Shown in pieces: positions 1 through 63,729 of a DNA stretch of 64,000 bases (its first letter is position 1; every line of letters begins with the position of its first letter). The translations under genes and the position numbers were made by a program. Below the pieces are notes generated by a model. That model saw nothing but the letters and a program-made list of their open reading frames with translations, searched no databases and was not told where the DNA came from. Origin of the DNA: an uncultured Alphaproteobacteria bacterium (GTDB lineage Bacteria; Pseudomonadota; Alphaproteobacteria; Rs-D84); the NCBI GenBank assembly GCA_944389265.1, contig CALXLS010000002.1, forward strand, positions 177,349-241,348. The letters run 5' to 3'.

Positions 1-760
1 CTTCTTCAAAACTTTCTTTCAAAGCATTTCTAACTGCAGACTCCGCATTTGCCAGTTCAAGTTCTGCCGCTGCCCTTTTTTCTGCCAAAGTATTTTTAAA
101 ACCCAAGCAATCAGAAGTTATTTGTCTAGCATATAATTGACGTAAAAACTCTATATCCCCAGCACAAGAATCAGGGACTTGAGCATAACATAGTTCATGT
201 GCTGCATTATATAACTCTGCACCAGTTTTATCTGCTATTGTGCTAACAGCATCTTCAAACACATCTTCTTCTGTATATAATGTATTTTCAAATAATGCCA
301 ACAAACTGGCTCTTTCTTGTTCTTTTTTTTCTGCTTCTGTTAACTCATTGTCACTAATTATATTACCTTCAGAATCATATCTACGTTCACCGGTAAAAAT
401 AATATCAGCATCTGCACCTGCTTTTACACGTTCAACTTCCACAGTATTAATTCTATTAGCCTCTTCTAATATAGCCTGAATTTCTGCAAACTCTTTTTCG
501 TATTCAATACTATCATCACTGCACGTACAACTACCACCATTAGAATTATCTGTAATGCAGAATTGATCCATACATCCGAAATAAGCATCATAGCAGGCTT
601 GATCATACAAACCAGTAGCAGTAACACGAGTCCTAACCGTTGTACCCTTTTGTATCGCAGATTGCTTTGTGGCGGTCGTACTAGTTAAAGCATAGGCCCC
701 TGTTATCATACCACACGCAATCAACCCAGACATAAAACCAAAAAGATTTTTTACTTTCAT
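1..760 (-). CDS. Secreted cysteine-rich coiled-coil protein, paralog family member. N-terminal part only; the gene runs off the window start.
   Basis: ATG at 758-760 (minus) preceded by AGGAAA SD. Translation MKVKNLFGFMSGLIACGMITGAYA... has a signal peptide, then ACYDAYFGCMDQFCITDNSNGGSCTCSDDS followed by a coiled-coil (EIQAILEEANRI...). The same Cys motif occurs in the ORFs at 829-2982, 3480-6047 and 33042-35984. Confidence 0.7.
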   Translation of the reverse strand, partial: MKVKNLFGFMSGLIACGMITGAYALTSTTATKQSAIQKGTTVRTRVTATGLYDQACYDAYFGCMDQFCITDNSNGGSCTCSDDSIEYEKEFAEIQAILEEANRINTVEVERVKAGADADIIFTGERRYDSEGNIISDNELTEAEKKEQERASLLALFENTLYTEEDVFEDAVSTIADKTGAELYNAAHELCYAQVPDSCAGDIEFLRQLYARQITSDCLGFKNTLAEKRAAAELELANAESAVRNALKESFEE

Positions 761-828
761 CTTTTTTCCTTTCAAATCCGAACTTTAATTATTATTCGGA
801 TAAAATTACACATCTTTGGAACTAAGAA

Positions 829-2982
829 TTACATGTTTATATCTTCGCAACTCTCAATTTCCTGACAGAATTCTTGTTCACCACCTGCGCTACGACCTGC
901 AAAAAGCCCGCCAATAGCACCAACAACACCACCGATTGCAGTCCCCCAACCTGGCGAAACCATTGTTCCTGCCGCTGCACCAGCGGACAACCCGCCTGCC
1001 AATCCTTTTACCCCAGCAGTACCTTTACTTTCACCGCCAACTTCACAAACTTGTTGCATACGGCAAACATGACAATTACGTAAAGCGGGTTCAAAAGATA
1101 CACTACGTATATAACTATAGTTTTTGCTAGACTTATCTGGTGTTTCTACTTTATAAGTATTTAAACAGTTTTGTTCTGCCGCTTCTAAATCCTGCTCACG
1201 CGATAACTCAGCAATTTTGCTTTCTAGTTCACGCATAGCACGATTTTCCGCACTAATTTGTGCAACTAATTTAGCACTATTAAACACATTTTCACCTAAA
1301 CTTTTTTGTCCTGCAGGTTTTTGACTATCCTGACAAGCAGCAACTGTTTTATCTTTTTCAAACTGAACAAAGAAATCATCAACTGCCGCTTCTGTATTTG
1401 CTCTAACAGTTTCACGCAATTCAGCAAGCCCCTCTTCTGTATCTGGCACAGCAACCAAAGACGTAATTTTTGTATCAGTTGGCAAACAAGACATATCTGT
1501 TCCACAAACATTACCCAGTTGTTCACCGAAATAATTTAAACATCCCTGCAACATTTGATAGTCCATCTGCAACAAAGCTGCCTGAACAATTATATCAAAC
1601 TGAGTTTCATTTTTACAAGATGGGAACATAGATTGCGGACAAAGTTCAGCGATTTCAATTGCAGTTTTACCGACGCACTCTGGCGCAGTAAAGTTATCAC
1701 CACATCTATCACGCAAACACTGGTCAATATCATTTTGACAAAATTGAGTACGCAAATATCCTAATTTATCATTAACAACCGCTTTTATGCCGGGGATCAT
1801 GGATTCACACTCATCAATTACTGGGCAAACACCCGCCGCGACATTAACATCTGTCAAACACGCAGAATTAGTCTCTGTTGAACAACCGTCTTCCAAACAA
1901 ACCTGTATCCTAGCCAAACAAGTTGCTCTTGCATTTTTATCTGCATACTTCGCTGCTTCGACTAATATACTTTCTGCCTCCGCTTCCCAATCATCTAAAA
2001 CATATTCACGAACGGCCATACACTGGTCTAATACATTTTCACAAGCATTTGCACGTCTACCCAACAAATCGGCATCTAAACAATTTTCAAAGTTTACACC
2101 ACAACCACCCTTATCAGAAATACATGCCCGATAAGCCAACAAACATTCACCACGGTTATACTTATTTGTAGTATCTAGCATTTCTAAGCGAGCCTGACGC
2201 ACCGCTGCTTCTGCCGTACGTTTATTAGATTCAGCAATTGCTTTTTGGTCATTTAAATAAGATTCAAAAGATTTACAATCTTGAACAATTTGACGCGCAT
2301 ACAAAACTTCTTCCATTTCGGCACTGCTGCCACAAGCCGCTAATTTATCAGAACAAAATTGTGAAGCCATCGCATATAAAGAATCACCAATATCCGCATC
2401 AGTTCCAAGACTAACTTCTTCTTCGGTTCCGCTACTTATCCAATCTAAGAAATTTATCCCTGAAACAGCAGAACTTTTCTTTGCCTGTTCGCTTTCACCG
2501 AACACAAGTTTTGCCTGGGCACCCAACTGTTCTCTTTCAACGCCCTCTGTATACAGCAAATCCGCTTCTTCTTGAATTTCCTGAATTTCTTGTATTAAAG
2601 ATTTTGACTGATTAATATTAGACGAACAAGCACAACGATTTCCTTCTGACTCATCTAACAAACAGAACTCGTCCATACACGCACGATACGCATCTCGGCA
2701 AGATTGATTTCCTGTTTGTGAACTACCTTCATCATCAGATGTATTTACATTTTCATCCGTAGTAGAACTACTAGAATCAGAAGAGTTTGTAGTTCCTGCC
2801 GGTTTAGTTGACATCGTAGGATTAGTTGTATTTGTCGTAATATTTGCGGTCATATTAGGCACCCGCACACCAGCCATAGACATACGATTTACGCCAACTC
2901 TGACATTAGAATCTGCGCGTTCTGCGGCAAAAGCGAAACCTGGGAACGTTAATAAAACCGCCAAAATAAATCTTAATTTCAT
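829..2982 (-). CDS. Secreted cysteine-rich coiled-coil protein (paralog family) with a C-terminal Gly-zipper segment
   Basis: Start is taken at the internal Met of the 743-aa ORF. MKLRFILAVLLTFPGFAFA is a signal peptide and GGGTGGG lies upstream as a Shine-Dalgarno (SD) sequence. A Thr/Ser/Asn-rich linker is followed by the motif SCRDAYRACMDEFCLLDESEGNRCACSS and a coiled-coil. The C-terminal ~400 aa carry many Cys. Near the end is GLAGGLSAGAAAGTMVSPGWGTAIGGVVGAIGGLFAG. Confidence 0.75.
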   Translation of the reverse strand: MKLRFILAVLLTFPGFAFAAERADSNVRVGVNRMSMAGVRVPNMTANITTNTTNPTMSTKPAGTTNSSDSSSSTTDENVNTSDDEGSSQTGNQSCRDAYRACMDEFCLLDESEGNRCACSSNINQSKSLIQEIQEIQEEADLLYTEGVEREQLGAQAKLVFGESEQAKKSSAVSGINFLDWISSGTEEEVSLGTDADIGDSLYAMASQFCSDKLAACGSSAEMEEVLYARQIVQDCKSFESYLNDQKAIAESNKRTAEAAVRQARLEMLDTTNKYNRGECLLAYRACISDKGGCGVNFENCLDADLLGRRANACENVLDQCMAVREYVLDDWEAEAESILVEAAKYADKNARATCLARIQVCLEDGCSTETNSACLTDVNVAAGVCPVIDECESMIPGIKAVVNDKLGYLRTQFCQNDIDQCLRDRCGDNFTAPECVGKTAIEIAELCPQSMFPSCKNETQFDIIVQAALLQMDYQMLQGCLNYFGEQLGNVCGTDMSCLPTDTKITSLVAVPDTEEGLAELRETVRANTEAAVDDFFVQFEKDKTVAACQDSQKPAGQKSLGENVFNSAKLVAQISAENRAMRELESKIAELSREQDLEAAEQNCLNTYKVETPDKSSKNYSYIRSVSFEPALRNCHVCRMQQVCEVGGESKGTAGVKGLAGGLSAGAAAGTMVSPGWGTAIGGVVGAIGGLFAGRSAGGEQEFCQEIESCEDINM

Positions 2983-3120
2983 AAAACCCACCCTACATAA
3001 ATTATTATTGATTTTATCAAATGAAGAGTTTGTGTGCAAGCACATAAAAACAACTTGCAATATTTTATTAAAAATAATATTATAAGCACTGTAATTTTTA
3101 AGTAAATTCTGAGGATAATT

Positions 3121-3375
3121 ATGGCAAAAGATGATGTAATTGTTTTTAGCGGCACAGTGGAAGACAAACTTCCCAACACAATGTTTCGCGTAAAACTAGA
3201 AAACGGTCATGAAATTTTAGCAACCGTATGTGGCAAAATGCGCAAGGCTCGCATATGGGTAAACGTTGGCGAAAAAGTTCGTGTAGAAATGACGCCATAC
3301 GACTTAGACAAAGGCAGAATAACATTTGTTGAACGCAATCGCACAACAGGTGATTCAACCGGAAACGCAATATAA
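3121..3375 (+). CDS. infA: Translation initiation factor IF-1
   Basis: 84 aa, [42 protein letters not shown]...[12 protein letters not shown] is the canonical IF-1 S1-like sequence. GAGGATAATT SD sits before the ATG. Confidence 0.93.
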
Positions 3376-3379
3376 AATT

Positions 3380-3401
3380 CTGCCCAAAGGCAGGATTTTT
3401 T
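3380..3401 (+). terminator. Rho-independent terminator after infA
   Basis: CTGCC-caaa-GGCAG hairpin followed by a T6 tract. Confidence 0.6.
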
Positions 3402-3479
3402 CTTATTAAAAAAGCATATATTTTTTAAATATTCCTTTCCTTAAAAATATATTTTTGTTATCATACTTAAAAGATAAGG

Positions 3480-6047
3480 ATGAAAAAGTTTTTGCTTTTT
3501 GTACTAGCGTATAGCATAGGCATCGGCTGTGTCGATGCTGCTGTTCGTGGCACAGAAACTATAAACAGAAACCCAAAAGATTCAGGCGTTACTACAGTTA
3601 TTGCGCGTGCCGCGACAAACGCGTCTGCAACCACCCAAGGACAAAGCCAAACAAACAGAACGACAACGAATACAACTACACGTGATACAGGCAATACAAT
3701 TTCCAGAACAACAACTGCAAAAAACATTACTCAATCTAACGTTTCACGCAACGCAACCACAGCCCGCAGCACATCTAATACAGCGCAATCATCGACTTCG
3801 CGGAATGCAGCGAACAATTCTGTTGTAAGAACAACAGCAACACCTAGGAAAACAGTAACTCCCTCTGCGCGTTCTGCACTAACTCCTGGTCGCGCATCTA
3901 CGATATCGACATCATCAACGAATACATTTGGAACAAGTTATAATTCATGTCGCGATGCATATTTCACATGCATGGATCAGTTTTGTGCGAACGCAAATGA
4001 CTCTTATCGTCGCTGTGTTTGTTCTTCTCGTCTTTCCGAAATACAGGAAAAGGAACGTGCTTTATCCCAAAGCGCAAATCAAATCCAAGATTTCAAAGAT
4101 TTAAATCTAGAAGTAATACCTAAAACTGCCGAGGAAGTAAAAGCGATGCTTTCCGCAACAGAAGGTGAAAATGCTATAAAATCAGACAATTCTGCATCTG
4201 CCCAGAAATTAGCAGGTATAAGTGATGTATTATCATCAACAAAATCAAAATCCTTATCCACCCTAGGTACTCTGGACATCGCCGGTGATATAAATCAGAT
4301 ATGGGCAACAACGGATCTAGCATCAGGTGAAAACATCATAAATTTAACGGGTGAATCTCTTTACAATGCGGTTCATGCACAATGTGCAGAACTGGTATCT
4401 GGGAACTGTACATCAACAGCAACCTTTAATATGGTTGTATCAGCTTATGGTATGTACATTGAAAACGACTGCACAACATTGGCAAATGCGCTTGATAAAA
4501 GTTTAAACCAAGCAAACAGTACCATACGCGATACAGAACGTGAAATGAACATGGCACGTCTTGACAATTATAATGCACATAATTCTACTTCCATAAACGA
4601 TTGTATTGCTCAGGTTCGTAAAGACATAACAGCAGATAACGCATGTGGTGAAGATTACGTACACTGCCTGGATATAACAGGTCGATATTTAAATCGTGAA
4701 ACGGGTGAACCAATTTACACCCAAGATTTTTATCAATTAGAAGCGCAAACCTCTTTAAGTGGTGATATATTAACAAATCCGACAAACCGCATGCTTGTTG
4801 CAGAATTAAATCGGAAACGTAGTTTTGCAGAACGCGGTCTAGAAACATGTCGTGATATTGCCGATGAAGTATGGGATGAATTTATGCGTCAAGCAATTAC
4901 AGAAATCTATCAAGGTCAGCAAGAAAAAATCAGAAACGTAAAGAACGAATGTTTAGACGTTGTAAACGCATGCTATGACGAACAAAGTGAATCATTAAAA
5001 GACTTTACAAACATAAAAGAAGAATTGCTATTAGGTTCTCGTTTGGAACTATCAGAAGAACTATGCCAAGAAAAACTATATGCATGCAGCAACCTATACG
5101 GGGATCCAAATGGTAATGGTTTAGAATTACTAATAACCGCCATGCATAACATAACCGACCAAAAAATTGCCCAAGAATGCGCCACATTGTTAAAAGAATT
5201 TGCAATTGATATGTGCGCTGTACCAAGCAATGACAGTTTACATTCATATCCTTATGGTTGTCGTGTTTATGCTCCGGGTGATCAAATTTATGCGTCTAAT
5301 TGGTTCTGCAACCAATTACAATGGTCGTCTAACAATAATTCTGAATCAACGACACAACCTACAAATCCGCCTGTCACACCTACAAAAGGATATATATGTC
5401 CTTCATATAAGAAATATACATCTTGTAATATTGGTTATTACCTTGCGACAAAGAATACATCTGGGGAATGGGTGCACAATGCCAATCCAGTTCCGGGCAA
5501 TTCTTGTATAGCCTGTCCTGCCAACGCACAATGTCCTGGTGGAACAAAAGCCCCAATTGGTGAATCCTTCGACCAAGAAGGAATTGACTGTGGTACAGAC
5601 TATGCAGGAAGTTTGTACCAGAAGGTAGTAAAATATGCGACCCAGGTATGTATACGTCCTTCAGATTTAGAAGAAATTACTGCAGGTAAAAAAGATATAC
5701 CAACCACAGTTTTAGAAGACGTTAATGTTGTAATGGATTCAATTCGTGTAGAAATGGCAAAGGTATTATCTGCAGAATGCGAACGCCTTGGTGGTGTATG
5801 GGTTGATACGCAATGGATAGACACGAAGCATCCGAAAGACGCTGATTCTGACATAACGACACGTGCCCCAAGTGACTTAATAGAAGGCTCTGATAACATA
5901 CACGATATAACCGGACATATATTATACAAATATTTCTATGACGAAACTGGTGCTAATACAAAATGGGGATATTGCGCAGATAAAGAGCAAATGACAGCAA
6001 CAGAAGAAGATGAAAAAGAAGGAACTAATAACACCACAGGTGAATAA
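3480..6047 (+). CDS. Secreted cysteine-rich coiled-coil protein (paralog family), 855 aa
   Basis: Signal peptide MKKFLLFVLAYSIGIGCVDAA. A long Thr/Ser/Asn/Arg-rich low-complexity N-terminal region precedes the motif SCRDAYFTCMDQFCANANDSYRRCVCSSRLSEIQEKER, a coiled-coil, and a C-terminal region with >30 Cys. Confidence 0.8.
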   Translation: MKKFLLFVLAYSIGIGCVDAAVRGTETINRNPKDSGVTTVIARAATNASATTQGQSQTNRTTTNTTTRDTGNTISRTTTAKNITQSNVSRNATTARSTSNTAQSSTSRNAANNSVVRTTATPRKTVTPSARSALTPGRASTISTSSTNTFGTSYNSCRDAYFTCMDQFCANANDSYRRCVCSSRLSEIQEKERALSQSANQIQDFKDLNLEVIPKTAEEVKAMLSATEGENAIKSDNSASAQKLAGISDVLSSTKSKSLSTLGTLDIAGDINQIWATTDLASGENIINLTGESLYNAVHAQCAELVSGNCTSTATFNMVVSAYGMYIENDCTTLANALDKSLNQANSTIRDTEREMNMARLDNYNAHNSTSINDCIAQVRKDITADNACGEDYVHCLDITGRYLNRETGEPIYTQDFYQLEAQTSLSGDILTNPTNRMLVAELNRKRSFAERGLETCRDIADEVWDEFMRQAITEIYQGQQEKIRNVKNECLDVVNACYDEQSESLKDFTNIKEELLLGSRLELSEELCQEKLYACSNLYGDPNGNGLELLITAMHNITDQKIAQECATLLKEFAIDMCAVPSNDSLHSYPYGCRVYAPGDQIYASNWFCNQLQWSSNNNSESTTQPTNPPVTPTKGYICPSYKKYTSCNIGYYLATKNTSGEWVHNANPVPGNSCIACPANAQCPGGTKAPIGESFDQEGIDCGTDYAGSLYQKVVKYATQVCIRPSDLEEITAGKKDIPTTVLEDVNVVMDSIRVEMAKVLSAECERLGGVWVDTQWIDTKHPKDADSDITTRAPSDLIEGSDNIHDITGHILYKYFYDETGANTKWGYCADKEQMTATEEDEKEGTNNTTGE

Positions 6048-6105
6048 CAAAGTCATCTTGATAAAGGAATAAAAATTTGATAAAATAAAAGAACAAGAGA
6101 GAAAA

Positions 6106-6810
6106 ATGAAAAAAATATTTGCAGTTTCTTTGATAAGCATACTCGCATCAAACGGCGCAAATGCTGCAATCAATTGGTGGGAAAGACCGACAGTTTGTCG
6201 TTTAGATCCAACTGACTGCTATACCAGCATGGGTACAGGATACGACAGCGAAATGTGGGATGCAAACAGTGAATGTTGGGGTATGAAATTAATCTGCCCA
6301 GAAGCACTAAAACGCGAAGAATACCAACCTGTTCCTATGGGGAAAACAGAAATTGCAAAAGGTACAGAAATCAAACAAGATTTCAACACTGATATATTAA
6401 ATGGTGATTGTTTTGGTGTAAGAAAAACAACATCTAATGGAACCATGGCATCTGTTGATGGAGAATATGTAAAAGTTTGGTGTAACGGCATACTAGAAAA
6501 CCCAGATGAATTTTTAACTAACGGTGAAATAACTTATGGTACACAACCAACCTGTTCTGACTTAGCAGAATATGGTTACGTTGGTATTGTAAACAATCGC
6601 TGTTACGGGAAATATTACGACGCATCAGAATATTTTATTGAATGTGAAGGTGATGATTTATTACCAAGTCGCATAATCTTATTAAATGGTGCCGACTATA
6701 ATGCACCATCTGGTAATGCACCTGCAGACAAATCCGCAGCAGATAAAATATTCGATCAAATGGAATCTGTATCAGAAACGCAAAGACAAAAATATTTTGA
6801 CAAAGACTAA
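6106..6810 (+). CDS. Small secreted cysteine-rich protein (234 aa)
   Basis: Signal peptide MKKIFAVSLISILASNGANA. Twelve or more Cys are spaced through the protein. Terminator hairpins follow directly. Confidence 0.7.
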   Translation: MKKIFAVSLISILASNGANAAINWWERPTVCRLDPTDCYTSMGTGYDSEMWDANSECWGMKLICPEALKREEYQPVPMGKTEIAKGTEIKQDFNTDILNGDCFGVRKTTSNGTMASVDGEYVKVWCNGILENPDEFLTNGEITYGTQPTCSDLAEYGYVGIVNNRCYGKYYDASEYFIECEGDDLLPSRIILLNGADYNAPSGNAPADKSAADKIFDQMESVSETQRQKYFDKD

Positions 6811-6819
6811 AAATATTAC

Positions 6820-6848
6820 AGGAGGCAACAAAGCCTCCTTATTTTATT
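6820..6848 (+). terminator. Rho-independent terminator
   Basis: AGGAGGC-aacaaa-GCCTCCT hairpin followed by TATTTTATT. Confidence 0.6.
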
Positions 6849-6910
6849 CTGCCGTAACATCATACCGGATATTTTACCTCAATAAAAATAATTAACTAAT
6901 TTTTCATATA

Positions 6911-6940
6911 AAAATCCCCCAACTGGGGGATTTTATTTTG
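6911..6940. terminator. Bidirectional terminator between convergent genes
   Basis: AAAA-TCCCCC-aact-GGGGGA-TTTTATTTT. An A-tract and a T-tract flank a 6-bp GC stem. The element sits between the + gene ending at 6810 and the - gene ending at 6948. Confidence 0.65.
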
Positions 6941-6947
6941 GTTATTT

Positions 6948-9900
6948 TTAGAAATTATATCTGAACTTCAACATACCTGTCTGAGAAGTGTAATCTTCAT
7001 GCAAGTCTAAGTCATAGTTCAACGATACTTCTACACCCTTATAGTTTGCAGTCAAACCGATACCGAATTCACCACCCAAGCGAGACAGACGTTTACTGTC
7101 AACAATGTATGATGCGGCACCAGGCATTGTGACTGTTGCGATTGCTTCATCAGACAATACGTCATATGTAGCTGCCGCACGCAATTCTGGACGCAAACTT
7201 AAACCTTTTTCTGTATCGATATCAAAGACATACTTTACACCTGCGACACCTGTCAAGTAATCTGTATCGCCAACTTTGATATCTGCCAAGCCGTTATTAT
7301 AGTCGTCTTGAGAGATATGTAAGTAGCGAACACCTGCTTCTGGTGTCAAACCATTTGCAAAGTCATAACCACCCATGACCTGACCACCGAAAGATGTGAC
7401 ATCATATTCAGAGTTAACTTCAACACCGAATGCATTTGTCGTTTCTGTATAGTCCGCCATTGTGTAGTTCAATGCAGCATTTACATACCACTGTGCTGGT
7501 TTATACTGACCATATACGAATATGCTGTTGCTTTCAATATCTGTATCACGAGCATTTTCTGCGTGAACATCTGTTGAGTTATAAGCATAACCGATACCAA
7601 TTGTATAATCACCATCAATCAATGCATCTGCACCGACAGCGACTCCACGAGTATAACCATCGAATTGACCGTTCAGTTTAGATTTATTGAACAGCCCCTG
7701 CGCCCATACACCATAATCTGCATTTGCTAAATCACCACCACTACGTCCAACATTTGCATTACCGGACATACGACCAGAAGCCAAGGACAAGACCTGATTC
7801 TGAACTGATGTAGCGACAGAATGAGTAACAGGTTTATCATCTGCTTTCAACTTTGCAGATTCTGCTTCAACATATTCTGTATTACCTTCTGCCAAAGCCT
7901 GCTGAGCTACCAACGAAGCTATTCCCATTTCATAGCTATCGCTATTTGCTAATCCTGCCAATACACCTGCTGTATCTACTGCCAAGTTTGTTGCGGCTGC
8001 AATTTCTTCGACAGCTTTTGTTTCAACTACGATAGCACTGCCATCCATAGAAACATTATACAAAGCATCATTTGCATTGATTGTCAGATTAGCAATTTCA
8101 AGGTCTTCATCTACAAAGATGTTATAGACCCCAGTTGCACCTATATTCAATGTAAGTTCTGCGGAATCACCAACCGTCAAGTCACCGACCAATTTACCGT
8201 AAGACTGAGAGTTTACGATAGAAGCAGCAACATTACCATTGATGTTCATTGTACCCTGATTGATTGTGTTAGCACCGATATTCAGAGTAGCCCCTTCGTT
8301 CAAACTCAAAGAACCTGTACCTGTGATACCGCCACCAATGATGGTTGTGCCATCAGCAAAAGTCAAGGAACCTAAGTTGTGGATATCATTTGCGACACCT
8401 GCTGCAGTATTACCTGCGAAAACGTTATCACCTTGGAAAGTCAAATTGCCTTTTGTGTCGTTATAAACTGCACCACCGAATTCACCAGAAGTGTTATTCG
8501 TAAATGTTACATTTTTCAATGTTGCAGTCTGCCCTTCATAACCCACTGCAGAATTTATATTGGCAAACGCGCCACCTTTTTTACCGGCTTTATTTCCATC
8601 GAATAAAACACCGTCAATCATACCGATTTTACCAGCATTTGTAATAGCACCACCCTGTTGCACTACACCTGTCAAAGCAGTATTATTTATGAACGCCGCA
8701 TTTTCGATTTTTTCAACCGTATCTATCTGCCCAAGTGTACCGTTCCACAAAGCACCACCATTACCCCCCTGATTATATTCAAAGACAGTATCAGTAATAC
8801 TTGTTATAACACCCTGGTTTCTGATAGCGCCACCATTTGAAGCGATATTACCATAGAAATAAGAATCAGAAATAGAATTAATTGTTCCTTGTCCTAAATC
8901 AGGCAGATTAGCATTGTTTATTGCACCACCATTTGCAGAATAGTTATTCTGGAAACGCATGCCCTTTAATTCAGCAATATTACCAGAATTATACAATGCA
9001 CCACCTGCATTATCTGCACGGTTTGCATAGAACGTTGTATTTTCTGCTAATGTTAATTCGCCATCATTAAATATAGCACCACCAAAACCGCTTACATGGT
9101 CTTCTGATTGTGCCGCATTATTTACAAAGTGCCCTGTGATATTTGCAGTTCCTTTGTTATACAAAGCACCACCATAAACCTTTCCGGTATTAGAGAAAGC
9201 CAAGTTATTCTGGAAATTACCTTTTGCAGTAAATGTGCCTTCATTATAAACAGCACCACCTTGTGCGGTTGTCACATTTGTTGTAACGCTGTTTCCACCG
9301 AAATTACCTTCTACATCAACTGTTGCATTTTTACCACTTGCTTCTTTGATAGAAATAGCACCACCTGTAGAAGTTTTTGCTATATCTTTATTATCTGTCA
9401 CGGCAACAACTTTATTATTTATAAAGTCGCCTGTGATTTTATCAATAGAAACATCTGTGTTTGGTCCCGCTTTGATATAAATAGCACCACCATTCGCATA
9501 AGCATCACCAGTTGCACTATTATTTACAAAGTTACCATTAATGGAACCGATTTTTGTTGTATCACCAGTTGCCCATTTACCTTCGATATGAATCGCGCCA
9601 CCCCCAGCAGAAACTAACTTATCCTGAGAAACCATTTCATCAGAATAATCTTTGTCTTCACCGACAATTTCTGCGATTGCTGCGTTACCAACAAAATTAC
9701 CTGTGATACTTTCTATTGTACTTTGATACAAAGCCAACGCACCACCGTTTGCGGTTGCTTTACTTGCAGTTTCTGATTTAGTATGTGCAGTATTATTAGA
9801 AAAATCGCCTGTAACAGCACCAATTTCACCAAAATTATAAATAGCACCACCTTGTGCATAAACGTCATCGGTCAAAGAGGCTTTTGCATCTTTATAAGCT

Positions 9901-10781
9901 TCCGCTTTATTACCTTGGAACAAGACATTTGAAACATCAGCTATCTTACCAGTTTCATCATTAAATATAGCACCACCTGTCTTAGCAGAATTTCCTACAA
10001 ACTTAGTATTTTCTGCAATATTCAATGTGCCCTTATTATAAATAGCCCCACCTGCATTAGCTGAATTGCTTTCAAATAAAGAATTTGCACCGATATTTAC
10101 AGTATTATAAAAATCTGTTTTATCTTCTGCTTTATCATTATTTAAATTAGCAATCGCACCACCACGATTAGCAGCGGTATTTCCTTTGAACACAGATTGA
10201 CCAAGTGTTAAATTACTTCCAACAGTCACCCCATTTGATTTATCTGTCCAAATTGCGATTGCGCCACCATCTGCTTCTGTTGAATTTTTTTCAAACAGAG
10301 CGCCATCACCCATAACAAAATTTTCGGCGGCTTCAATTCCTAAAGCACCGCCTAACCATTTAGAAGAATTGCCTTTAAACACAGTATTCTTTCCGAAAGA
10401 AATATTTCTATCAGAATCTTCTGTTTCTGGAATCTTTACATATAAACCACCAGACATCTTATTAGATGTATTTCCTTCAAACGTCCAACCGTCACCTGCT
10501 GTAAACCCATTTAATGCCTTCATAGCACCACCAGAATTTACAGAAGAATTATTTTTAAAGGTTACATTATTAGCGCCATTCTTCGACAAAGAATCACCGT
10601 AACTTATGGTCAAAGCACCTGCCCTTTCATCAGCTACTTCATTCTTTTGATTTTCGAATACTTGACCTTCTTGAATATCAACAACCGCGGCCTTTGCAGA
10701 AGTCAGACCAACGGTAGAAATCATGCCACATACTGCAAAAACAGGCAGTACAGAGCATGCTTTAAGTAGTTTATTAGACAT
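6948..10781 (-). CDS. Pmp-like (polymorphic membrane protein-type) autotransporter/adhesin, 1277 aa
   Basis: Signal peptide MSNKLLKACSVLPVFAVCGMISTVGLTSAKA. More than 20 GGA[ILV] repeats (GGAIYN, GGALYN, GGAIFN...) are interleaved with FxxN motifs (FVGN, FQGN, FINN, FTNN). The C-terminal ~300 aa have beta-barrel character and end in ...MLKFRYNF. A strong AAGGAGAAAGT SD sits before the ATG. Confidence 0.85.
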   Translation of the reverse strand: MSNKLLKACSVLPVFAVCGMISTVGLTSAKAAVVDIQEGQVFENQKNEVADERAGALTISYGDSLSKNGANNVTFKNNSSVNSGGAMKALNGFTAGDGWTFEGNTSNKMSGGLYVKIPETEDSDRNISFGKNTVFKGNSSKWLGGALGIEAAENFVMGDGALFEKNSTEADGGAIAIWTDKSNGVTVGSNLTLGQSVFKGNTAANRGGAIANLNNDKAEDKTDFYNTVNIGANSLFESNSANAGGAIYNKGTLNIAENTKFVGNSAKTGGAIFNDETGKIADVSNVLFQGNKAEAYKDAKASLTDDVYAQGGAIYNFGEIGAVTGDFSNNTAHTKSETASKATANGGALALYQSTIESITGNFVGNAAIAEIVGEDKDYSDEMVSQDKLVSAGGGAIHIEGKWATGDTTKIGSINGNFVNNSATGDAYANGGAIYIKAGPNTDVSIDKITGDFINNKVVAVTDNKDIAKTSTGGAISIKEASGKNATVDVEGNFGGNSVTTNVTTAQGGAVYNEGTFTAKGNFQNNLAFSNTGKVYGGALYNKGTANITGHFVNNAAQSEDHVSGFGGAIFNDGELTLAENTTFYANRADNAGGALYNSGNIAELKGMRFQNNYSANGGAINNANLPDLGQGTINSISDSYFYGNIASNGGAIRNQGVITSITDTVFEYNQGGNGGALWNGTLGQIDTVEKIENAAFINNTALTGVVQQGGAITNAGKIGMIDGVLFDGNKAGKKGGAFANINSAVGYEGQTATLKNVTFTNNTSGEFGGAVYNDTKGNLTFQGDNVFAGNTAAGVANDIHNLGSLTFADGTTIIGGGITGTGSLSLNEGATLNIGANTINQGTMNINGNVAASIVNSQSYGKLVGDLTVGDSAELTLNIGATGVYNIFVDEDLEIANLTINANDALYNVSMDGSAIVVETKAVEEIAAATNLAVDTAGVLAGLANSDSYEMGIASLVAQQALAEGNTEYVEAESAKLKADDKPVTHSVATSVQNQVLSLASGRMSGNANVGRSGGDLANADYGVWAQGLFNKSKLNGQFDGYTRGVAVGADALIDGDYTIGIGYAYNSTDVHAENARDTDIESNSIFVYGQYKPAQWYVNAALNYTMADYTETTNAFGVEVNSEYDVTSFGGQVMGGYDFANGLTPEAGVRYLHISQDDYNNGLADIKVGDTDYLTGVAGVKYVFDIDTEKGLSLRPELRAAATYDVLSDEAIATVTMPGAASYIVDSKRLSRLGGEFGIGLTANYKGVEVSLNYDLDLHEDYTSQTGMLKFRYNF

Positions 10782-10881
10782 ACTTTCTCCTTTAGTAAAT
10801 TTTATTTTGGGCCTTCTGTACCAAAAAGCCTATCATACCTAGGACTATCGTCAACAAAAATATTTTTGATAATAATCCTAT

Positions 10882-11119
10882 AAAAAACCGCCAAGGAAAT
10901 GGCGGTCGGGGAGTTAAGAAAATCACCCAAAAGTATGACCCCGCCAGTTTTCGGGATACCCTATTTTATAACTGACGGCTCCCCGACCTGATACGGGGTT
11001 CAGAGACAATAAATGGCGCAAATCCGCGCCGTATATCATCCCTACATCTCAGCATAAAAAAACTTATGCTGCTTTTGGGTTGGCTTTCTTACGGCCCGAA
11101 ACCACATCCCTGTGGATTC
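10882..11119 (-). ncRNA. Structured ~235-nt leader/ncRNA, copy A; unclassified riboswitch- or attenuator-like element upstream of the Pmp-like autotransporter
   Basis: Its own promoter is TTGTCT-16-TATAAT (complement 11126-11153). Conserved blocks are shared with copy B at 15170-15405. The RNA ends in terminator ACCGCCA-uuuccu-UGGCGGU plus U6 at 10882-10906. Details are in the findings. Confidence 0.6.
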
Positions 11120-12628: not shown

Positions 12629-12686
12629 AAAACTCAGCGATTTCATTCCTGTGGCTAAAAATCAAATTAAAACACATAATATAAAT

Positions 12687-13772
12687 ATGCAAAAGAAGAA
12701 CTTGATTTTTAGCCTGGCGGTCATCATGACATTGACCAGCGCAACAGTGGCCGATGCTTGTACAGGCATCACCCTGAAATCCAAAGACAATGGCGTTGTA
12801 GTTGCAAGAACAATTGAATGGGGTGAATCCGAAATGGAAAACCTTTATGTAATTGTTCCGCGCAATCATATTCAACAATCTATGCTACCTGACGGTGATT
12901 CTGGTGGTATGACATTTTCCAGCATGTATGGATACGTCGGCTTGGCCGTTGTCGAACCAGGTTGGGTTGTTGACGGTATGAACGAAGCGGGTCTGTCTGC
13001 CGCCCTATTCTATTTTCCAGGCTATGGTCAATATCCGAAATACAATCCTGCGAACAAGGGGAAAACAATATCAGACTTTCAGTTAGTATCTTGGATATTA
13101 TCAAGATTTTCAACCATAGACCAAGTAAAAGCCGCAATTCAAAATATTGATGTTGTGGGCATCTATCCAAACGCATCAACTGCACACTGGCGCGTAACAG
13201 ATTCTACCGGCCGACAAATAGTTATAGAAATTGTTGAGGGTAAACCACAAATCTACGAAAACGAATTGGGGGTTTTAACTAACTCGCCCAATTTCCCATG
13301 GCAAATTAAAAACCTAAACAATTATGTAAATCTTATGCCAGGAACAGCAGGTCCTGTAAAAATGGGTGGTATAACGCTTTCCGCATTCGGCGCAGGTAGT
13401 GGCATGCTTGGTCTTCCTGGTGATATGACCCCACCTTCCCGATTCGTTCGTGCTTCTTTCTTCCAGACATACTCTATCCAGCAAGACACTTCATACGATT
13501 CCGCAATGCTAGCATTTCATATACTAAATAACTTTGATGTTCCACTTGGCACAGAATTCCCTGTTGGCAAAGCACCTGTTGATATGCCTTCTGCGACCCA
13601 ATGGACAATTGCAACAGATATGAAAGACAGAGTTATATATTATCACACGATGTATAACAGGACGATTCGTTCTATTGATATGGACAAGATAGATTTTGCA
13701 AATGTACCATTTCAATCTGCACCGCTTGATGAAACGAAGCAAGAAACAATCATTCCGATACAAATTCGTTGA
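12687..13772 (+). CDS. Secreted Ntn-hydrolase of the choloylglycine hydrolase / penicillin V acylase (linear amide C-N hydrolase) family
   Basis: Signal peptide MQKKNLIFSLAVIMTLTSATVADA, immediately followed by Cys (CTGITLKSKDNGVVVARTIEWG...), the N-terminal nucleophile arrangement of this family. The ORF-track start at 12651 is a GTG. The ATG at 12687 is preferred. Confidence 0.7.
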   Translation: MQKKNLIFSLAVIMTLTSATVADACTGITLKSKDNGVVVARTIEWGESEMENLYVIVPRNHIQQSMLPDGDSGGMTFSSMYGYVGLAVVEPGWVVDGMNEAGLSAALFYFPGYGQYPKYNPANKGKTISDFQLVSWILSRFSTIDQVKAAIQNIDVVGIYPNASTAHWRVTDSTGRQIVIEIVEGKPQIYENELGVLTNSPNFPWQIKNLNNYVNLMPGTAGPVKMGGITLSAFGAGSGMLGLPGDMTPPSRFVRASFFQTYSIQQDTSYDSAMLAFHILNNFDVPLGTEFPVGKAPVDMPSATQWTIATDMKDRVIYYHTMYNRTIRSIDMDKIDFANVPFQSAPLDETKQETIIPIQIR

Positions 13773-15427: not shown

Positions 15428-16378
15428 ATGAAAAAATTTATAACCTCTGTACTTTACACGACAATATGTATATTTGCATATTTCCCGGCGAACGCAGAAC
15501 TTTGTTGTATTGTAAATGACATGTTCGTTGGAAAATGCCCAACAGCAGAAGACCTTGATTGGGGTTCTGCCGCACCAGATCCAAAATGCATTTGCACAGC
15601 TGGGGTTCCACCTCTTTGCAAAATGACAGAAATTTTTAGTCGGTGTCCAGATGGGACCGTTGCGGGTCAATATATAAAAGACTGCACCTGTACAGAATGC
15701 CAAAGTGGTGGTGGCGGAACAGGTGGTGGCTCACTATTACCATGTACTGCATGTGATGAAGTTGGTTGGCAAAGTAACGGCACAGGCTATGAAATTAAAA
15801 AAACAGGCGGGACATGCAGCGGCAACACAAGTTCATATCACGGTACCTGCAAAGGTCAAACAATAGAATATCGGTGTGCACCTGGTTATTGTGGTACAAC
15901 AACTGACGGTAAAACAGGTTGCGTCAAAGCAGATTATGAAGATTTTTTGGTAAACTGTAGAGTTATAGACAAATTCGAAAACGAATGCCCTTCTGGTGTT
16001 ACTAATTGCATATGTACAAATACATACCCCAAAATATGCACCGTACTTGATATATTTGATACCCCGCCTTCCTGGGCACAAAATTACTTTTGTGGAACGA
16101 ATTATTGGGTTAGTACAGCAACAGGTCACGAACAGAACAAAATAGTAAATATCGAAGGAGAATCTTGCACATCCTTCTCTCAATCCTATAGATGCTCTGC
16201 CGGCTATTACGGTTCTACAACGAATGGAACTTCTGGTTGTTCAAAATGTCCTATACCTGGTACAAGTCTTGCCGGACAAAATTCCGCCATTGGTCAGTGT
16301 TATATTCCATCAAACACCCCTCAAACCGACACAACAGGGCAATATATATACAGCTTAAATTGTTATTATACGAACTAA
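15428..16378 (+). CDS. Secreted cysteine-rich protein (316 aa)
   Basis: Signal peptide MKKFITSVLYTTICIFAYFPANA. AGGAAGG SD. About 40 Cys, with CC and CxC doublets and a GGGGTGGG linker. Preceded by RNA copy B. Confidence 0.75.
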   Translation: MKKFITSVLYTTICIFAYFPANAELCCIVNDMFVGKCPTAEDLDWGSAAPDPKCICTAGVPPLCKMTEIFSRCPDGTVAGQYIKDCTCTECQSGGGGTGGGSLLPCTACDEVGWQSNGTGYEIKKTGGTCSGNTSSYHGTCKGQTIEYRCAPGYCGTTTDGKTGCVKADYEDFLVNCRVIDKFENECPSGVTNCICTNTYPKICTVLDIFDTPPSWAQNYFCGTNYWVSTATGHEQNKIVNIEGESCTSFSQSYRCSAGYYGSTTNGTSGCSKCPIPGTSLAGQNSAIGQCYIPSNTPQTDTTGQYIYSLNCYYTN

Positions 16379-19784: not shown

Positions 19785-22700
19785 TTAAATTCCTAGTCTA
19801 TGATTCAATTTCATCATAAATATAGATTCATTACCAAATTCACTCGTATTATTAGGATTTACACGATAAATAAAACCAATTGCACCATCTGTCCAAGGTC
19901 CAAAATTATGACGATAAGTTCCAACAAAACGTAATTCTTTTGCATCTGGGCTTAAATCAACATTTTCGATATGAGTATCATTTACAACTAAATCATACTT
20001 TCCACCCTCAACCTCAACTATTTCATAATCTGCATAAGCATATTGCAAACTACCTTTACTTACCGTAAGAGGCTGAGAAACACTAAAACTGAAATTACCT
20101 GCATCTACCCCGAAAGCGAACGCATTAGATTCGATATCTGATAAGCCAAGTATAATTTGTCCGCTTGCATCAGATTCAGTATGAGCAAAAGTAGAACGCA
20201 AAGTAAAATTCAATTTTTCATATGGGGAATAATGAATTTCAGAATCTACATAAGTAGTATTACCCTGCCCCATATTCAATAATCCACCACTTTGCGCACC
20301 CAATAAAGTATCTGTTTCATGCGCTGTACCAATAGATGTTGTAAAACCAAATTTTTCACCATTCCAAGAAACATCTGATTGCATACCTTGCATCAATCCT
20401 AGTCTTGCAGGATTATATTGTGAAGAAACAGTTGGGTCATTATCCAATAATTCTTCATCTGTTATTGCGCCAGAAAAAGCACGTGTACCAAAAGACCATT
20501 TACCCATATTATAAACAATATCAGAGGTTATCGCGTTTGAAGCCAACCCAAGCACAGGATTTGACATACCATCAAATCTGGAAGCACCGTCTGTAAAATA
20601 GCGTTGATATTCTGCGGCTAAATTCCAATTATCAACAGAATAGTCTAAACGCATATTATCCAATCCATTCAGATTATCTGCATAAGGTTTTTCAGATACA
20701 GCCATAGAAAAACCGAAATCTCCGAATTGAACTTTATTAGGTTCTGACTTACGTGTTTTAAAATCACCTAAAACATCACCCATATATAAACCGCGCTTAT
20801 CCTGTACCCCCAGCGCAAAATCATTCTTCCAAATACGAGGCAAAGACATATCGCCATCTACACTTTCCAAAAAGTCAAAGAAAGGCGCACTAATTCTTGC
20901 TGTACTGGGACTTAATGCCGCAGAAGGCCGGAAAATAGTATTACTTGCTGCACGCCAATAAGCATTTCCTGAATCAGATACAATTTCGTTTCCATTATAA
21001 TAATATATAGAATGCCCAGGTGTCATAGCTCTTTCCAAATTAATTAAACCATAACCATAAACCTCTGCAAAAGCATCCAGATAAGCCTGTCCTGTTAAAT
21101 TATCTGCATAATAATCAGGTGGCAAAGAGTACATAGATTTCAAATAAGCAACCAAAGTGTCTGTTGTGAAAGAAGTTCCTGCATCTGTCGTACCAAGATA
21201 AGGTCCGTCAGCTGTCAACGCCAACAAAGTAAATATCTGTTGGTTATTCATATAATTAAATGCGCCTTTTAATGCTGCAACTGCACCTGCTGCCGAAGCA
21301 GTTGCCATTTCTGCAGTGGGTCCTGCTGCTGAAAAGCACCATGGGTCAATACCATTTATTCCAAGTCCCGCCAAACCACATTTACGAGAAGAATAAACGA
21401 CATCGTCATCAGTAGTATCTGTACCTTTATTATCCTGCCACATAGAAAGATAAATTGGACCATATGCACTTCCTGTACCGTTTCCATAATCTTCTATACT
21501 ATCTGCACCAGAAGTACCTTTAGAATGCTGTACCGCAACAACCGTCATAAATAAATGTTCTAAATTATCGTCATATAATGCAGGTGCATAATTTTCGAAA
21601 GTTGCGTCCAAAACAGTTAAAGATTTGCCATCTCCAACGCCATATTCAAATTCACCGGCAGGCATAACTAAAATAGGCAAACTAGAATTATATCCGTTAA
21701 ATAGAGTATTGGCATAGCCCCCCTGTGTAGTAGTTCCGGAATCATCATTATCGTAATATGAATTTATCTGATTCATAAAAACAGTTTTCGTATCCAAACC
21801 ACTATTCAATGCAAACAGCGAAGCCATTTCCCCAGTTGTTAAATAAGAAGTGCTGCGAGATTCAGGGTTCAAAACTGCATTTGCAATTGCCGCAGAACCA
21901 CTATTACGCGCGTTATACATAGCCTGGAAATTCATAACATCAATTTCCTGCCACTCTTTTTGAACATATATATTGTTGTTATTTACTACATAAACTGCAT
22001 CAATAGTATTTTTTCCCGAAGTATTTACATAATAATAACCATCTGTTCCGACATATATTGCAATATCTGTTTCATCATCACCACAACCACTAGTACAAGT
22101 ACCTATCATCATAGAACTTTCTGAAGCAAGGTTATATGTAGTTCCATTAATTTCTATTGTCGGATTTGTGACCCCTGCCCCAGTTGTTGCCGCAGCAATG
22201 GTATAAGTTTTTCCATTTAATGTTATTGTATCCCCTGCTTCGATAGTATTAGCCGTTCCACCTGATGCAGAATCCGTCAAAGTACCAACCACAGACCCCT
22301 GCGTTGGATTTTGTACATCAACAAAGCCGTATCCGTTTCCAGTTCTATACACAGCCAATTGACCATTAGGAATAAAACCATACAAATCCCCATACGCACG
22401 CCCACCTGCTTCCCAACCTGCAACTATTTTGGCCAGCGCATTTTCATTTGCCGTAGCGAAAGGATTCATAGCAGTACCACTTCCCGACAAATCGTATCCG
22501 ACAAGTTCAGCGCCGCAAGTTTCACCTTCCACACAAGGAGCAGAATAGTTCGCATACTTATCAACAGTATACGTATTTGAATTTGCACTTGCACTATCAG
22601 AATAAGTGATTCCATATCCACGCCCTGCCGAGCCTGTTGGATTTACACCATTAGCAGTAATCAAAGAAACAAGCATAGGTTTTCCACCACCTGCTTGATT

Positions 22701-23507
22701 TAAAATCTTTACAGGATTATTTGATTCATCACGGAATGTGGCCTGTCCCATATACCCATTTGCAAAAGCGGAATAACCGTGCATCATTAACAAATAATTT
22801 TGCATAGGAACCGAAATCCCGCCAGTCACATAGTTATTAGAGGTTTGAACAGACGGTCTAAAATAATTAAAATCGGCTTCACGAATACCACCTGCACTAG
22901 GGTCCCAATTTTGCAAATTAGATAAATAAGCCGCCTGACTATAAGAAATCTCGCCTGTTGTAGTAAAATAAGCAGGTCCCACAGGTATTTTACCACTTGC
23001 AGTAGCGCCACTATCTCCACCGTCACCACCGCCACCAGGTCTTGTTCCATCTGAAGACGAACCTACATTTTCATTACCTGGGTCAAGTACATCTGTCAAT
23101 AGAAACAGTCCACCTACAACAACGGCGGCTCCCGCCGCCGCTAGTGCCATACCTTGGGCGGAAGACAACCCGCTAAATAATCCACCACTACTCTTCGGTT
23201 TATTCTTAGAATTATATTGTTTTATTTGTTGATCACACTTTGATGCATCCGCACCATACATTTGTAAAATCTGTGCTGCACGAATATCGTTATTCATCAA
23301 CGCAGTACAAACGATAGATAACCCTGTACTATCAACATAATTAACATTTGCACCATTATTTATTAAAATTTGTACCTGCTGAATATCTGCATTTTTAGCA
23401 GCAGACAATAACTGAGCAGCAATAGTAAAATCATTAGTTGCAGCAAATAACGCACTTGGTGCTAAAAACAATGAAAAAAGTAAAATTCTGATATATTTCA
23501 TTAACAA
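19785..23507 (-). CDS. Large secreted protein (1240 aa) with N-terminal ankyrin repeat(s). Has degenerate subtilase-like stretches and a C-terminal beta-rich, possibly outer-membrane domain.
   Basis: Signal peptide MLMKYIRILLFSLFLAPSALFA. An ankyrin-like segment NGANVNYVDSTGLSIVCTALMNNDIRAAQILQMYGAD. GPTAEMATASAAGAVAALKGAF and GYGLINLERAM resemble the subtilase Ser-motif and C-terminal regions, but no clear catalytic Asp/His/Ser triad is visible. The C-terminal ~350 aa show an alternating beta pattern. Confidence 0.6.
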   Translation of the reverse strand: MLMKYIRILLFSLFLAPSALFAATNDFTIAAQLLSAAKNADIQQVQILINNGANVNYVDSTGLSIVCTALMNNDIRAAQILQMYGADASKCDQQIKQYNSKNKPKSSGGLFSGLSSAQGMALAAAGAAVVVGGLFLLTDVLDPGNENVGSSSDGTRPGGGGDGGDSGATASGKIPVGPAYFTTTGEISYSQAAYLSNLQNWDPSAGGIREADFNYFRPSVQTSNNYVTGGISVPMQNYLLMMHGYSAFANGYMGQATFRDESNNPVKILNQAGGGKPMLVSLITANGVNPTGSAGRGYGITYSDSASANSNTYTVDKYANYSAPCVEGETCGAELVGYDLSGSGTAMNPFATANENALAKIVAGWEAGGRAYGDLYGFIPNGQLAVYRTGNGYGFVDVQNPTQGSVVGTLTDSASGGTANTIEAGDTITLNGKTYTIAAATTGAGVTNPTIEINGTTYNLASESSMMIGTCTSGCGDDETDIAIYVGTDGYYYVNTSGKNTIDAVYVVNNNNIYVQKEWQEIDVMNFQAMYNARNSGSAAIANAVLNPESRSTSYLTTGEMASLFALNSGLDTKTVFMNQINSYYDNDDSGTTTQGGYANTLFNGYNSSLPILVMPAGEFEYGVGDGKSLTVLDATFENYAPALYDDNLEHLFMTVVAVQHSKGTSGADSIEDYGNGTGSAYGPIYLSMWQDNKGTDTTDDDVVYSSRKCGLAGLGINGIDPWCFSAAGPTAEMATASAAGAVAALKGAFNYMNNQQIFTLLALTADGPYLGTTDAGTSFTTDTLVAYLKSMYSLPPDYYADNLTGQAYLDAFAEVYGYGLINLERAMTPGHSIYYYNGNEIVSDSGNAYWRAASNTIFRPSAALSPSTARISAPFFDFLESVDGDMSLPRIWKNDFALGVQDKRGLYMGDVLGDFKTRKSEPNKVQFGDFGFSMAVSEKPYADNLNGLDNMRLDYSVDNWNLAAEYQRYFTDGASRFDGMSNPVLGLASNAITSDIVYNMGKWSFGTRAFSGAITDEELLDNDPTVSSQYNPARLGLMQGMQSDVSWNGEKFGFTTSIGTAHETDTLLGAQSGGLLNMGQGNTTYVDSEIHYSPYEKLNFTLRSTFAHTESDASGQIILGLSDIESNAFAFGVDAGNFSFSVSQPLTVSKGSLQYAYADYEIVEVEGGKYDLVVNDTHIENVDLSPDAKELRFVGTYRHNFGPWTDGAIGFIYRVNPNNTSEFGNESIFMMKLNHRLGI

Positions 23508-39895: not shown

Positions 39896-40273
39896 TTATT
39901 TACCCTTTACTGCGGAACCAGCAACTACAACGCGCTTACCCTTACGAGTACGAGCATTTGTCTGAGTACGCTGACCGCGAACCGGTAAACGGTTACGATG
40001 ACGAATACCGCGATATGTTTTCAAATCTTGCAAACGTTTAATATTCATTGCAACTTCACGGCGAACATCACCTTCTACTTTAAAGTTTTCTTCTATATAT
40101 TTAGAAATTTTAACAACTTCCTCATCAGTCAAGTCTTTCGCGCGCAGACCATCTTTCAATTTCAAAGCCCTGCAAATCTGAGCAGACTTTGCAGGTCCAA
40201 TACCATGAATGTATTGCAACGCGATTTCAATGCGCTTTTCTGTAGGAATGTTAACACCTGCTATACGTGCCAT
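39896..40273 (-). CDS. rpsM: 30S ribosomal protein S13
   Basis: [34 protein letters not shown]...[25 protein letters not shown] is canonical S13. Confidence 0.95.

Positions 40274-63652: not shown

Positions 63653-63729
<77 letters not shown>

Follow-up and report, generated by a model that had tools for sequence, protein, structure and literature searches.

An undescribed family of exported, cysteine-rich, predicted all-alpha proteins in the gut alphaproteobacterial order Rs-D84

Cysteine-rich, disulfide-bonded envelope proteins are already known from bacteria as a general kind, and so is the anchoring of envelope proteins through glycine zippers. Among the described systems, the chlamydial protein OmcB combines a beta-rich fold with a basic, heparin-binding N-terminus, and disulfide-rich surface coats, for example those built from the Giardia variant-specific surface proteins (VSPs), shield gut organisms from proteases. 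Glycine-zipper hairpins of two transmembrane helices anchor the outer-membrane proteins SlyB and YfgH (bioRxiv 10.64898/2025.12.22.696046; 10.64898/2026.06.08.730324). Here we describe a family of exported cysteine-rich proteins that is itself new, four members of which, labelled A to D, are encoded in a stretch of 64,000 nucleotides that we refer to as the window (GenBank assembly GCA_944389265.1, contig CALXLS010000002.1, positions 177,349 to 241,348 of the forward strand). The source is Candidatus Enterousia, a gut bacterium of the alphaproteobacterial order Rs-D84 that is uncultured and whose genome measures about 0.9 Mb. Enterousia has been placed in this uncultured order, with genomes mostly below 1 Mbp that lack the tricarboxylic acid cycle, a respiratory chain and standard transporters and that retain the genes for peptidoglycan and rod shape, and a partner-dependent lifestyle has been proposed for Enterousia/Rs-D84 (PMC12306168).

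The conclusion that we regard as well supported is that A to D represent an undescribed and ancient family of exported, disulfide-stapled, all-alpha proteins that belongs to the core of Rs-D84. An earlier note on this DNA had pointed to four open reading frames (ORFs) sharing an N-terminal motif. All four are present where that note placed them (Table 1), and a six-frame search of the window for C-x3-Y-x2-C-M-D-x-F-C...C-x-C returned exactly four matches, one for each ORF. BLASTP connects B with D over about 600 residues (E 5e-48), A with D (E 2e-36), C with D (E 5e-24), and B with C (E 3e-15, limited to the N-terminal 250 residues or so); judged by their sequences, A, B, C and D are true paralogs. 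The architecture that had been ascribed to all four does not extend to the whole of C, which shares the N-terminal half only and has a different domain in its C-terminal half, where a helical region reaching to about residue 612 is followed by small cysteine-rich beta repeats and a helical C-terminal domain, with neither a glycine zipper nor the C-terminal mini-domain of the other types. Two further descriptions have to be revised: the genes do not lie on alternating strands, A and B being on the same strand with a gap of 68 nt and only C being divergent, 497 nt from B, and the proteins, at 717-980 residues, are large rather than giant. We take the ATG at 2982 as the true start of B, not the TTG at 3060, because orthologs begin MKL.... 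Paralog A, which is cut by the edge of the window, has a full-length ortholog of 835 residues at 7953-10460 of the related locus L001, which is 98% identical and from the same species (L001, L081, L083, L085 and L086 being labels of related loci used for comparison). Altogether, the family and its relatives account for about 10 kb of the 64 kb, or about 13 kb with their conserved neighbours.

The earlier statement that this is not a described domain family is borne out by the database searches. A to D and the full-length A ortholog have no above-threshold match in Pfam-A, NCBIfam or PHROGs, where only sub-threshold low-complexity or Gly-rich matches were returned; 39 diverse members of the family have no curated family in common; no sequence match and no structural match to the family was found among the solved structures of the Protein Data Bank (PDB); and a literature search found no description of it. 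A PHROG "tape measure" match to B (E 5e-5) falls on the Gly-rich loop and is compositional. A profile search of 1.84 billion representative proteins yielded 942 clusters (50% identity) at E<=1e-3, 440 of them at E<=1e-30, and with paralog D as sole query the homologues numbered more than 1000, no precomputed Pfam domain being recorded for any of them. The named members that were looked up are all annotated as "hypothetical protein" and all come from metagenome-assembled genomes (MAGs) of uncultured Alphaproteobacteria or "Rickettsiales", many of them from termite guts. A scan for related loci, with one genome per bacterial species, gave 228 related stretches, the best 80 of which underlie the locus-level counts below; all 80 belong to Candidatus Enterousia or to unnamed gut Alphaproteobacteria/"Rickettsiales" MAGs, including one closed genome of 958,618 bp, so that the family is indeed specific to this lineage. 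A search for a viral or mobile origin found no relative of the family among 2.9 million IMG/VR contigs.

The family is also old. Its 150 best representatives sort into four groups (98 of the D type, 25 of C, 15 of B and 12 of A), each of which contains termite-gut members, and the four paralogs therefore predate the radiation of the lineage. The trio C(-)B(+)A(+), with three motif matches, is found in 76 of the 80 species-level loci, and what had been taken for an expanding family thus consists of four old ortholog groups, expansion being confined to the D type, of which one relative carries four tandem copies. That relative keeps the order rpoA-rplQ-[D]-ORF31998-ORF29786, and distant relatives have several paralogs grouped together with infA, secG, dsbA, an M23 peptidase gene and an OmpA-family gene. 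Across 79 loci, the median identity to the reference species is 71% for B, 69% for A and 56% for C, compared with 58% for a fragment of the adjacent Pmp-type autotransporter, 57% for the orthologs of ORF 6106-6810, and 80% and 76% for the neighbouring MotB/OmpA-like and MotA/ExbB-like proteins, respectively. A and B are thus more conserved across the genus than the Pmp fragment, and a structural role in the envelope therefore fits them better than a fast-evolving role in host interaction. Two apparent associations were set aside: several loci have a methyltransferase gene close to those of the family, but the copy in the window is not homologous to those of L081 and L083; and in the termite-gut assembly GCA_009782725.1 (L085) a D-type gene (8001-11075, +) lies 80 nt downstream of a gene for a VirD4/TraG-like coupling protein of a type IV secretion system (T4SS; 5663-7921, +), a single sighting that did not recur in five other contexts and is probably incidental.

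That the proteins are exported is indicated by their N-termini, which in 110 of 125 full-length representatives resemble Sec signal peptides, with K/R residues, a hydrophobic stretch and a small-x-small site, the site itself being present in 122 of the 125. The orthologs do not conserve the possible lipoboxes of the two proteins that have one (LIAC in A, GIGC in C), and the N-termini carry sites of the A-x-A type. The low-complexity spacer that follows is real, measuring 31-135 residues in A to D, 55-68% of them S/T/A/N/G; among family members its median length is 87 residues, with A, T, S, V, G and R abundant and D and E nearly absent, and its net charge, with a median of +8, is positive in 96% of members. 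The spacer of C has 16 K+R against 3 D+E, and its orthologs show periodic (T/S)x(A/V)R(T/S) units, while the spacers of B orthologs conserve the sub-motif R-VGVN-R-xSxAG-R-PNM. AlphaFold models predict the spacer to be disordered, and by composition it seems better described as a polycationic disordered tail than as the O-glycosylated, mucin-like stalk suggested before.

The predicted fold behind this tail is all-alpha. The AlphaFold model of B, built from an alignment of 71 diverse sequences with 22-65% identity to B, has a mean predicted local distance difference test score (pLDDT) of 79, with residues 91-650 mostly above 90, and consists of an all-alpha ectodomain with helices of up to 55 residues and a small C-terminal beta-sheet, the spacer and the glycine-zipper loop being disordered; across the monomer models, long helices of 52-55 residues are placed inside the all-alpha domain, and these models do not by themselves show the long coiled-coil of the earlier note. 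The sheet of B is predicted to comprise three antiparallel strands (622-631, 636-649 and 703-716), with the glycine-zipper loop (650-700, low pLDDT) inserted between the second and the third, and the protein ends in ...CEDINM. The cysteines are not confined to the C-terminal region, as had been thought, but span residues 95-712 of B, largely in repeated C-x6-C-x4-6-C-x6-9-C modules. The N-terminal motif is the first copy of this internal four-cysteine module, C-x6-C-x4-6-C(G)-x6-9-C, of which each protein has 3-4 copies (in B: CRDAYRACMDEFC...C, CLLAYRACISDKGGCGVNFENC, CLARIQVCLEDGCSTETNSAC and CQNDIDQCLRDRCGDNFTAPEC), a count that was reached by 0 of 2000 shuffles.

The conservation of these cysteines argues for disulfides. 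In the alignment of 71 sequences, 30 of the 36 cysteines of B are conserved in 100% of the non-gap positions and 34 in at least 94%, and those that vary are never lost singly: C640 and C712 are missing together in 35 of 35 cases, C646 and C706 in 6 of 6, and C493 and C499 in 4 of 4. The sums 640+712 and 646+706 are equal, matching the antiparallel register of predicted strands 2 and 3, and the paired loss together with this register therefore identifies cross-strand disulfide partners, from which it also follows that both ends of the glycine-zipper hairpin lie in the same, oxidising compartment. The paired loss is, in addition, independent support for the model of B; the pairings deduced from it would be intramolecular only. 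Mature A, B and D have even cysteine counts (36, 36 and 38), and in a termite-gut relative the gene immediately downstream of a family gene encodes DsbA. If all cysteines are bonded, each protein would hold about 18 disulfides.

Of the four proteins, to all of which a hydrophobic glycine-zipper segment had been assigned near the C-terminus, only B and D have one; the segment is weak in the full-length A ortholog, C lacks it, and just a minority of the wider family carries it. The Pfam glycine-zipper families gave sub-threshold matches, in B only (Gly-zipper_Omp, E 0.082, 13.3 bits against a cut-off of 25; Gly-zipper_YMGG, E 0.12). In D-type members a hydrophobic region of 50-110 residues rich in Gly, Ala and Val directly precedes the C-terminal mini-domain that in B takes the form of the sheet, here WNYKE..F..C.KC..C..C..C.D.QF/M, and a juxtamembrane motif, LPxSxxPPK, is conserved ahead of the hydrophobic region in D-type members of many lineages (for example at 33426-33450 (-) of the window). 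This motif is not a C-terminal sorting signal of the PEP-CTERM or sortase kind, since it is followed first by the hydrophobic region and, beyond that, by a conserved domain about 55 to more than 100 residues long, and the C-terminal ...I-x-F/M is not a beta-signal of outer-membrane proteins (OMPs), as the strands are polar and disulfide-bonded and hence not membrane strands.

Table 1. The four paralogs and neighbouring features of the window (nucleotide positions; aa, amino acids)
Feature	Position	Strand	Description
Paralog A	<1-760	-	N-terminal 253 aa, truncated by the window edge; signal peptide, short spacer (596-688), motif (521-595)
Paralog B	829-2982	-	717 aa, 36 Cys; signal peptide, spacer (2704-2925), motif (2626-2700), predicted all-alpha core, predicted C-terminal three-stranded sheet (835-1119) split by Gly-zipper loop (883-1035)
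Paralog C	3480-6047	+	855 aa, 30 Cys; signal peptide, long polycationic spacer (3540-3944), motif (3948-4022)
ORF 6106-6810	6106-6810	+	exported protein of 234 aa that contains Cys; lies 58 nt beyond C on the same strand
Pmp-type ORF	6948-10781	-	1277-aa Pmp-type autotransporter, 2 Cys; Chlam_PMP repeats (E 7e-28), Autotransporter beta-domain (E 5.5e-33)
ORF 24506-25372	24506-25372	+	288-aa exported protein, 20 Cys; first gene of a three-gene operon-like run; four-Cys module C-x6-C-x6-CG-x-DF-x2-C
ORF 25384-26886	25384-26886	+	500-aa exported protein, 16 Cys; two copies of the four-Cys module
ORF 26898-29357	26898-29357	+	819-aa exported protein, 40 Cys; N-terminal CarboxypepD_reg-like domain, C..C..GY-type repeats, C-terminal OmpA peptidoglycan-binding domain
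ORF 29786-31861	29786-31861	-	691-aa exported protein, 26 Cys, two Gly-zipper-like segments; syntenic neighbour of D type (43% identical homologue in L086)
ORF 31998-33011	31998-33011	+	337-aa membrane protein with acidic low-complexity region, no Pfam match; neighbour of D type (36% identical homologue in L086)
Paralog D	33042-35984	-	980 aa, 38 Cys; signal peptide, polycationic spacer (35628-35921), motif (35550-35624), predicted helical ectodomain, hydrophobic Gly/Ala-rich two-helix hairpin (33288-33425), C-terminal Cys mini-domain WNYKE...CHKC...C...C...C.D.QF (33045-33209)

The four paralogs stand in a wider set of cysteine-rich exported proteins. About 16 ORFs of the window have signal-like N-termini and ten of these contain 3.2-9.5% cysteine, compared with 0-1.3% in the cytoplasmic proteins, the beta-barrel OMPs and the Pmp autotransporter. 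ORF 6106-6810 is 43% identical (E 1e-65) to an ORF just downstream of a C-type gene in a termite-gut relative and has a homologue adjoining C in 72 of 79 Enterousia loci, which makes it a conserved partner of C-type genes; the Pmp-type autotransporter lies directly beside the cluster formed by A, B, C and this ORF. A scan of window positions 1-7000 for promoters and terminators found nothing above shuffled expectation except hairpins after ORF 6106-6810. The family probably has distant relatives in ORFs 24506-25372 and 25384-26886 (hhalign against the family profile: probability 84%, E 8e-6, and 87%, E 4e-6, respectively), and ORF 26898-29357, which begins 11 nt after the second of them, is the last gene of the same run. 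ORF 29786-31861 was tried as a family member and rejected (hhalign probability 0.7%). A separate cysteine-rich protein, of 316 residues with 30 cysteines (9.5%), is encoded at 15428-16378 (+); it is exported, has repeated "YRC..GY.G....G..GC" units and no Pfam match, and is weakly similar to the cysteine-repeat region of C (E 0.008).

As to what the family does, we tentatively favour a structural role, with the proteins forming a protease-resistant scaffold or lattice in the cell envelope that is anchored in part by glycine zippers, over a role as variable adhesins. The proteins would be exported by Sec into the diderm envelope and lose their signal peptides, after which the mature protein would begin with a disordered, mostly polycationic tail rich in A, T, S and R, continue as a rigid ectodomain of helices, about 500-600 residues long, with repeated four-cysteine modules and about 18 disulfides, and end, in the A, B and D types, in a small disulfide-bonded three-stranded sheet. 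In B and D a Gly/Ala-rich two-helix hairpin, inside the sheet or just before it, may anchor the protein in one of the two membranes, with the sequence on either side of it facing the oxidising (periplasmic or outer) compartment, while the polycationic tails would contact anionic polymers of the envelope; and the four non-redundant types, probably with ORFs 6106-6810, 29786-31861 and 31998-33011, would act together as a scaffold or lattice. We favour this reading because no surface-export device is present, because the orthologs are 1:1 and evolve relatively slowly, because there are four non-redundant types with conserved partner genes, and because genes for an OmpA domain and for DsbA are associated with the family. 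Several points weigh against it. A periplasmic rather than a surface location would follow solely from the absence of any known surface-export signal in the sequences, and polycationic tails would equally suit binding to anionic surfaces of a host or partner. The C type carries small cysteine repeats of the CxxGY kind with weak likeness to TNFR/furin-like repeats, which are typical of extracellular proteins. A clearly hydrophobic segment (Kyte-Doolittle value of at least 1.6) is found in only 18 of 135 members, so membrane anchoring is not family-wide, and the low predicted template modelling score of the B model (pTM 0.49) makes its domain arrangement uncertain. The beta-barrel OMPs and the Pmp protein of the window are cysteine-poor, which speaks against a general disulfide-linked outer-membrane complex, and the lack of a respiratory chain (PMC12306168) calls into question how DsbA would be re-oxidised in an anaerobe.

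The most serious alternative, which we consider possible but less likely than not, is that the proteins are displayed on the surface, outside the outer membrane, and serve as adhesins or in host or partner interaction, their tails and C-type repeats binding anionic host mucins or the cell surface of a partner that sustains this bacterium with its reduced metabolism. The small genomes without standard transporters and the proposed partner dependence (PMC12306168) would suit this, as would the positive spacers, the expanded cysteine-rich repeats of C-type members (up to 70 Cys, with weak TNFR-like Foldseek matches), the diversification of the D type with its four-fold tandem expansion in one relative, the Pmp-type neighbour and, by analogy, the coats of Giardia. 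The surface-adhesin proposal of the earlier note is nevertheless not supported by A to D, in which no autotransporter barrel, conserved lipobox or known C-terminal sorting domain is recognisable: a Pfam search of the four found no C-terminal beta-barrel translocator of the kind used in type V secretion, and the C-terminal strands are polar and disulfide-bonded. Nor do 1:1 orthologs with 69-71% genus-wide identity, set against 58% for the Pmp fragment, fit such a role well, and in the alignment of 71 sequences all cysteines and the greater part of the core are invariant and no domain stands out as hypervariable. We think it very unlikely that the cysteines instead ligate Zn, Fe or Fe-S clusters, or buffer thiols, in metal-binding or redox-active periplasmic proteins without structural disulfides. 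An anaerobic habitat with no respiratory chain to drive DsbB (PMC12306168) and the C-H-x-C and C-x-C spacings are compatible with this, but the loss of cysteines two at a time in a cross-strand register is the signature of disulfides and not of four-ligand metal sites, the even counts in mature A, B and D and the adjacent DsbA gene of a relative point the same way, and neither a conserved pattern of His/Asp co-ligands nor heme CxxCH motifs were seen. Least probable of all is that the family comprises secreted toxins or effectors, for instance pore-formers acting through the glycine zipper on competitors or host cells. The glycine-zipper loop of B does weakly resemble class IIc bacteriocins (Pfam E 0.0016, below cut-off), and one relative has a D-type gene beside that of the VirD4-like coupling protein; yet this adjacency is a single sighting, a Sec signal peptide is at odds with delivery by a T4SS, most members have no hydrophobic segment, there is no immunity-gene pattern or toxin domain, and the genes belong to the core and keep their syntenic places among housekeeping genes (infA, secG, rpoA, rplQ).

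A bolder version of the scaffold reading, which we hold to be unlikely as it stands, sees a lineage-wide, disulfide-locked protein layer with a fold that has no known relative, in which the four paralogs and their partners form a lattice or an intercellular attachment structure that tails and hairpins tether to the membrane and cell wall. If true, such a layer would be an independently evolved functional parallel to the chlamydial outer membrane complex or to a parasite coat, and would underlie the partner-dependent lifestyle of organisms with genomes below 1 Mb.

Other features of the window stand apart from the family. ORF 12651-13772 (+) encodes a protein of the choloylglycine hydrolase family (CBAH, E 5.6e-67) with a signal-like N-terminus, of the bile-salt-hydrolase type and consistent with a gut habitat. 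ORF 19785-23507 (-), of 1240 residues, has a signal-like N-terminus and a marginal ankyrin match (Ank_4, E 1.5e-4, just below cut-off) and otherwise belongs to no family; it is a possible eukaryote-like or host-interaction protein. ORF 59978-63610 (+) is a restriction-modification fusion of 1210 residues, with an Eco57I methylase and two type I S-subunit specificity domains, and since its block has a G+C content of 0.29 against about 0.38 and adjoins tRNA-Pro (63653-63729, -), it is probably a horizontally acquired defence island. An Rfam match to Alpha_RBS, the leader with the ribosome-binding site of the alpha operon (40241-40350, -; 43.2 bits against a gathering score of 38), lies just downstream of secY and precedes the genes of that operon; the surrounding ribosomal protein/secY/rpoA cluster (about 37-56 kb) is an ordinary one.

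Candidatus Enterousia and its order are widespread in human, livestock and termite guts, and for these uncultured bacteria with genomes below 1 Mb, for which dependence on partners has been proposed, the family offers a concrete entry point into envelope biology and lifestyle. It also offers structural biologists a new, confidently predicted disulfide-rich all-alpha fold, and it may be a source of specific markers or antigens with which Rs-D84 bacteria could be detected and enriched.

In comparison with the known systems, the family resembles chlamydial OmcB and OmcA in that both consist of exported, unusually cysteine-rich and presumably disulfide-bonded envelope proteins of a small-genome bacterium, with a basic N-terminal region and in the company of Pmp-type autotransporters. 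It differs from them in having no sequence similarity (no Pfam match) and a predicted all-alpha fold, and the cell to which it belongs differs as well, since Enterousia keeps its peptidoglycan and rod-shape genes (PMC12306168) and its beta-barrel OMPs and Pmp protein are cysteine-poor. With the Giardia VSPs and the Plasmodium Duffy-binding-like (DBL) domains it has in common the many conserved cysteines in exported proteins of a gut-dweller, the CxxGY-type repeats of the C type and a helical main domain that would be stabilised by disulfides; unlike the VSPs, it is bacterial and lacks both their CXXC-rich repeats and their C-terminal tail, and it has no structural match in the PDB and consists of conserved 1:1 orthologs rather than antigenically varying arrays. 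Set beside SlyB, YfgH and the Rickettsia 17-kDa antigen, B and D lack a conserved lipobox, fall far short of the Pfam cut-off (13 bits in B against 25) and carry the hairpin as a small insert in proteins of 700-980 residues with a large, unrelated ectodomain, in a family most of whose members have no hairpin; what B and D would share with these proteins is the Gly/Ala-rich, two-helix hydrophobic hairpin itself, with both of its ends on one side of the membrane.

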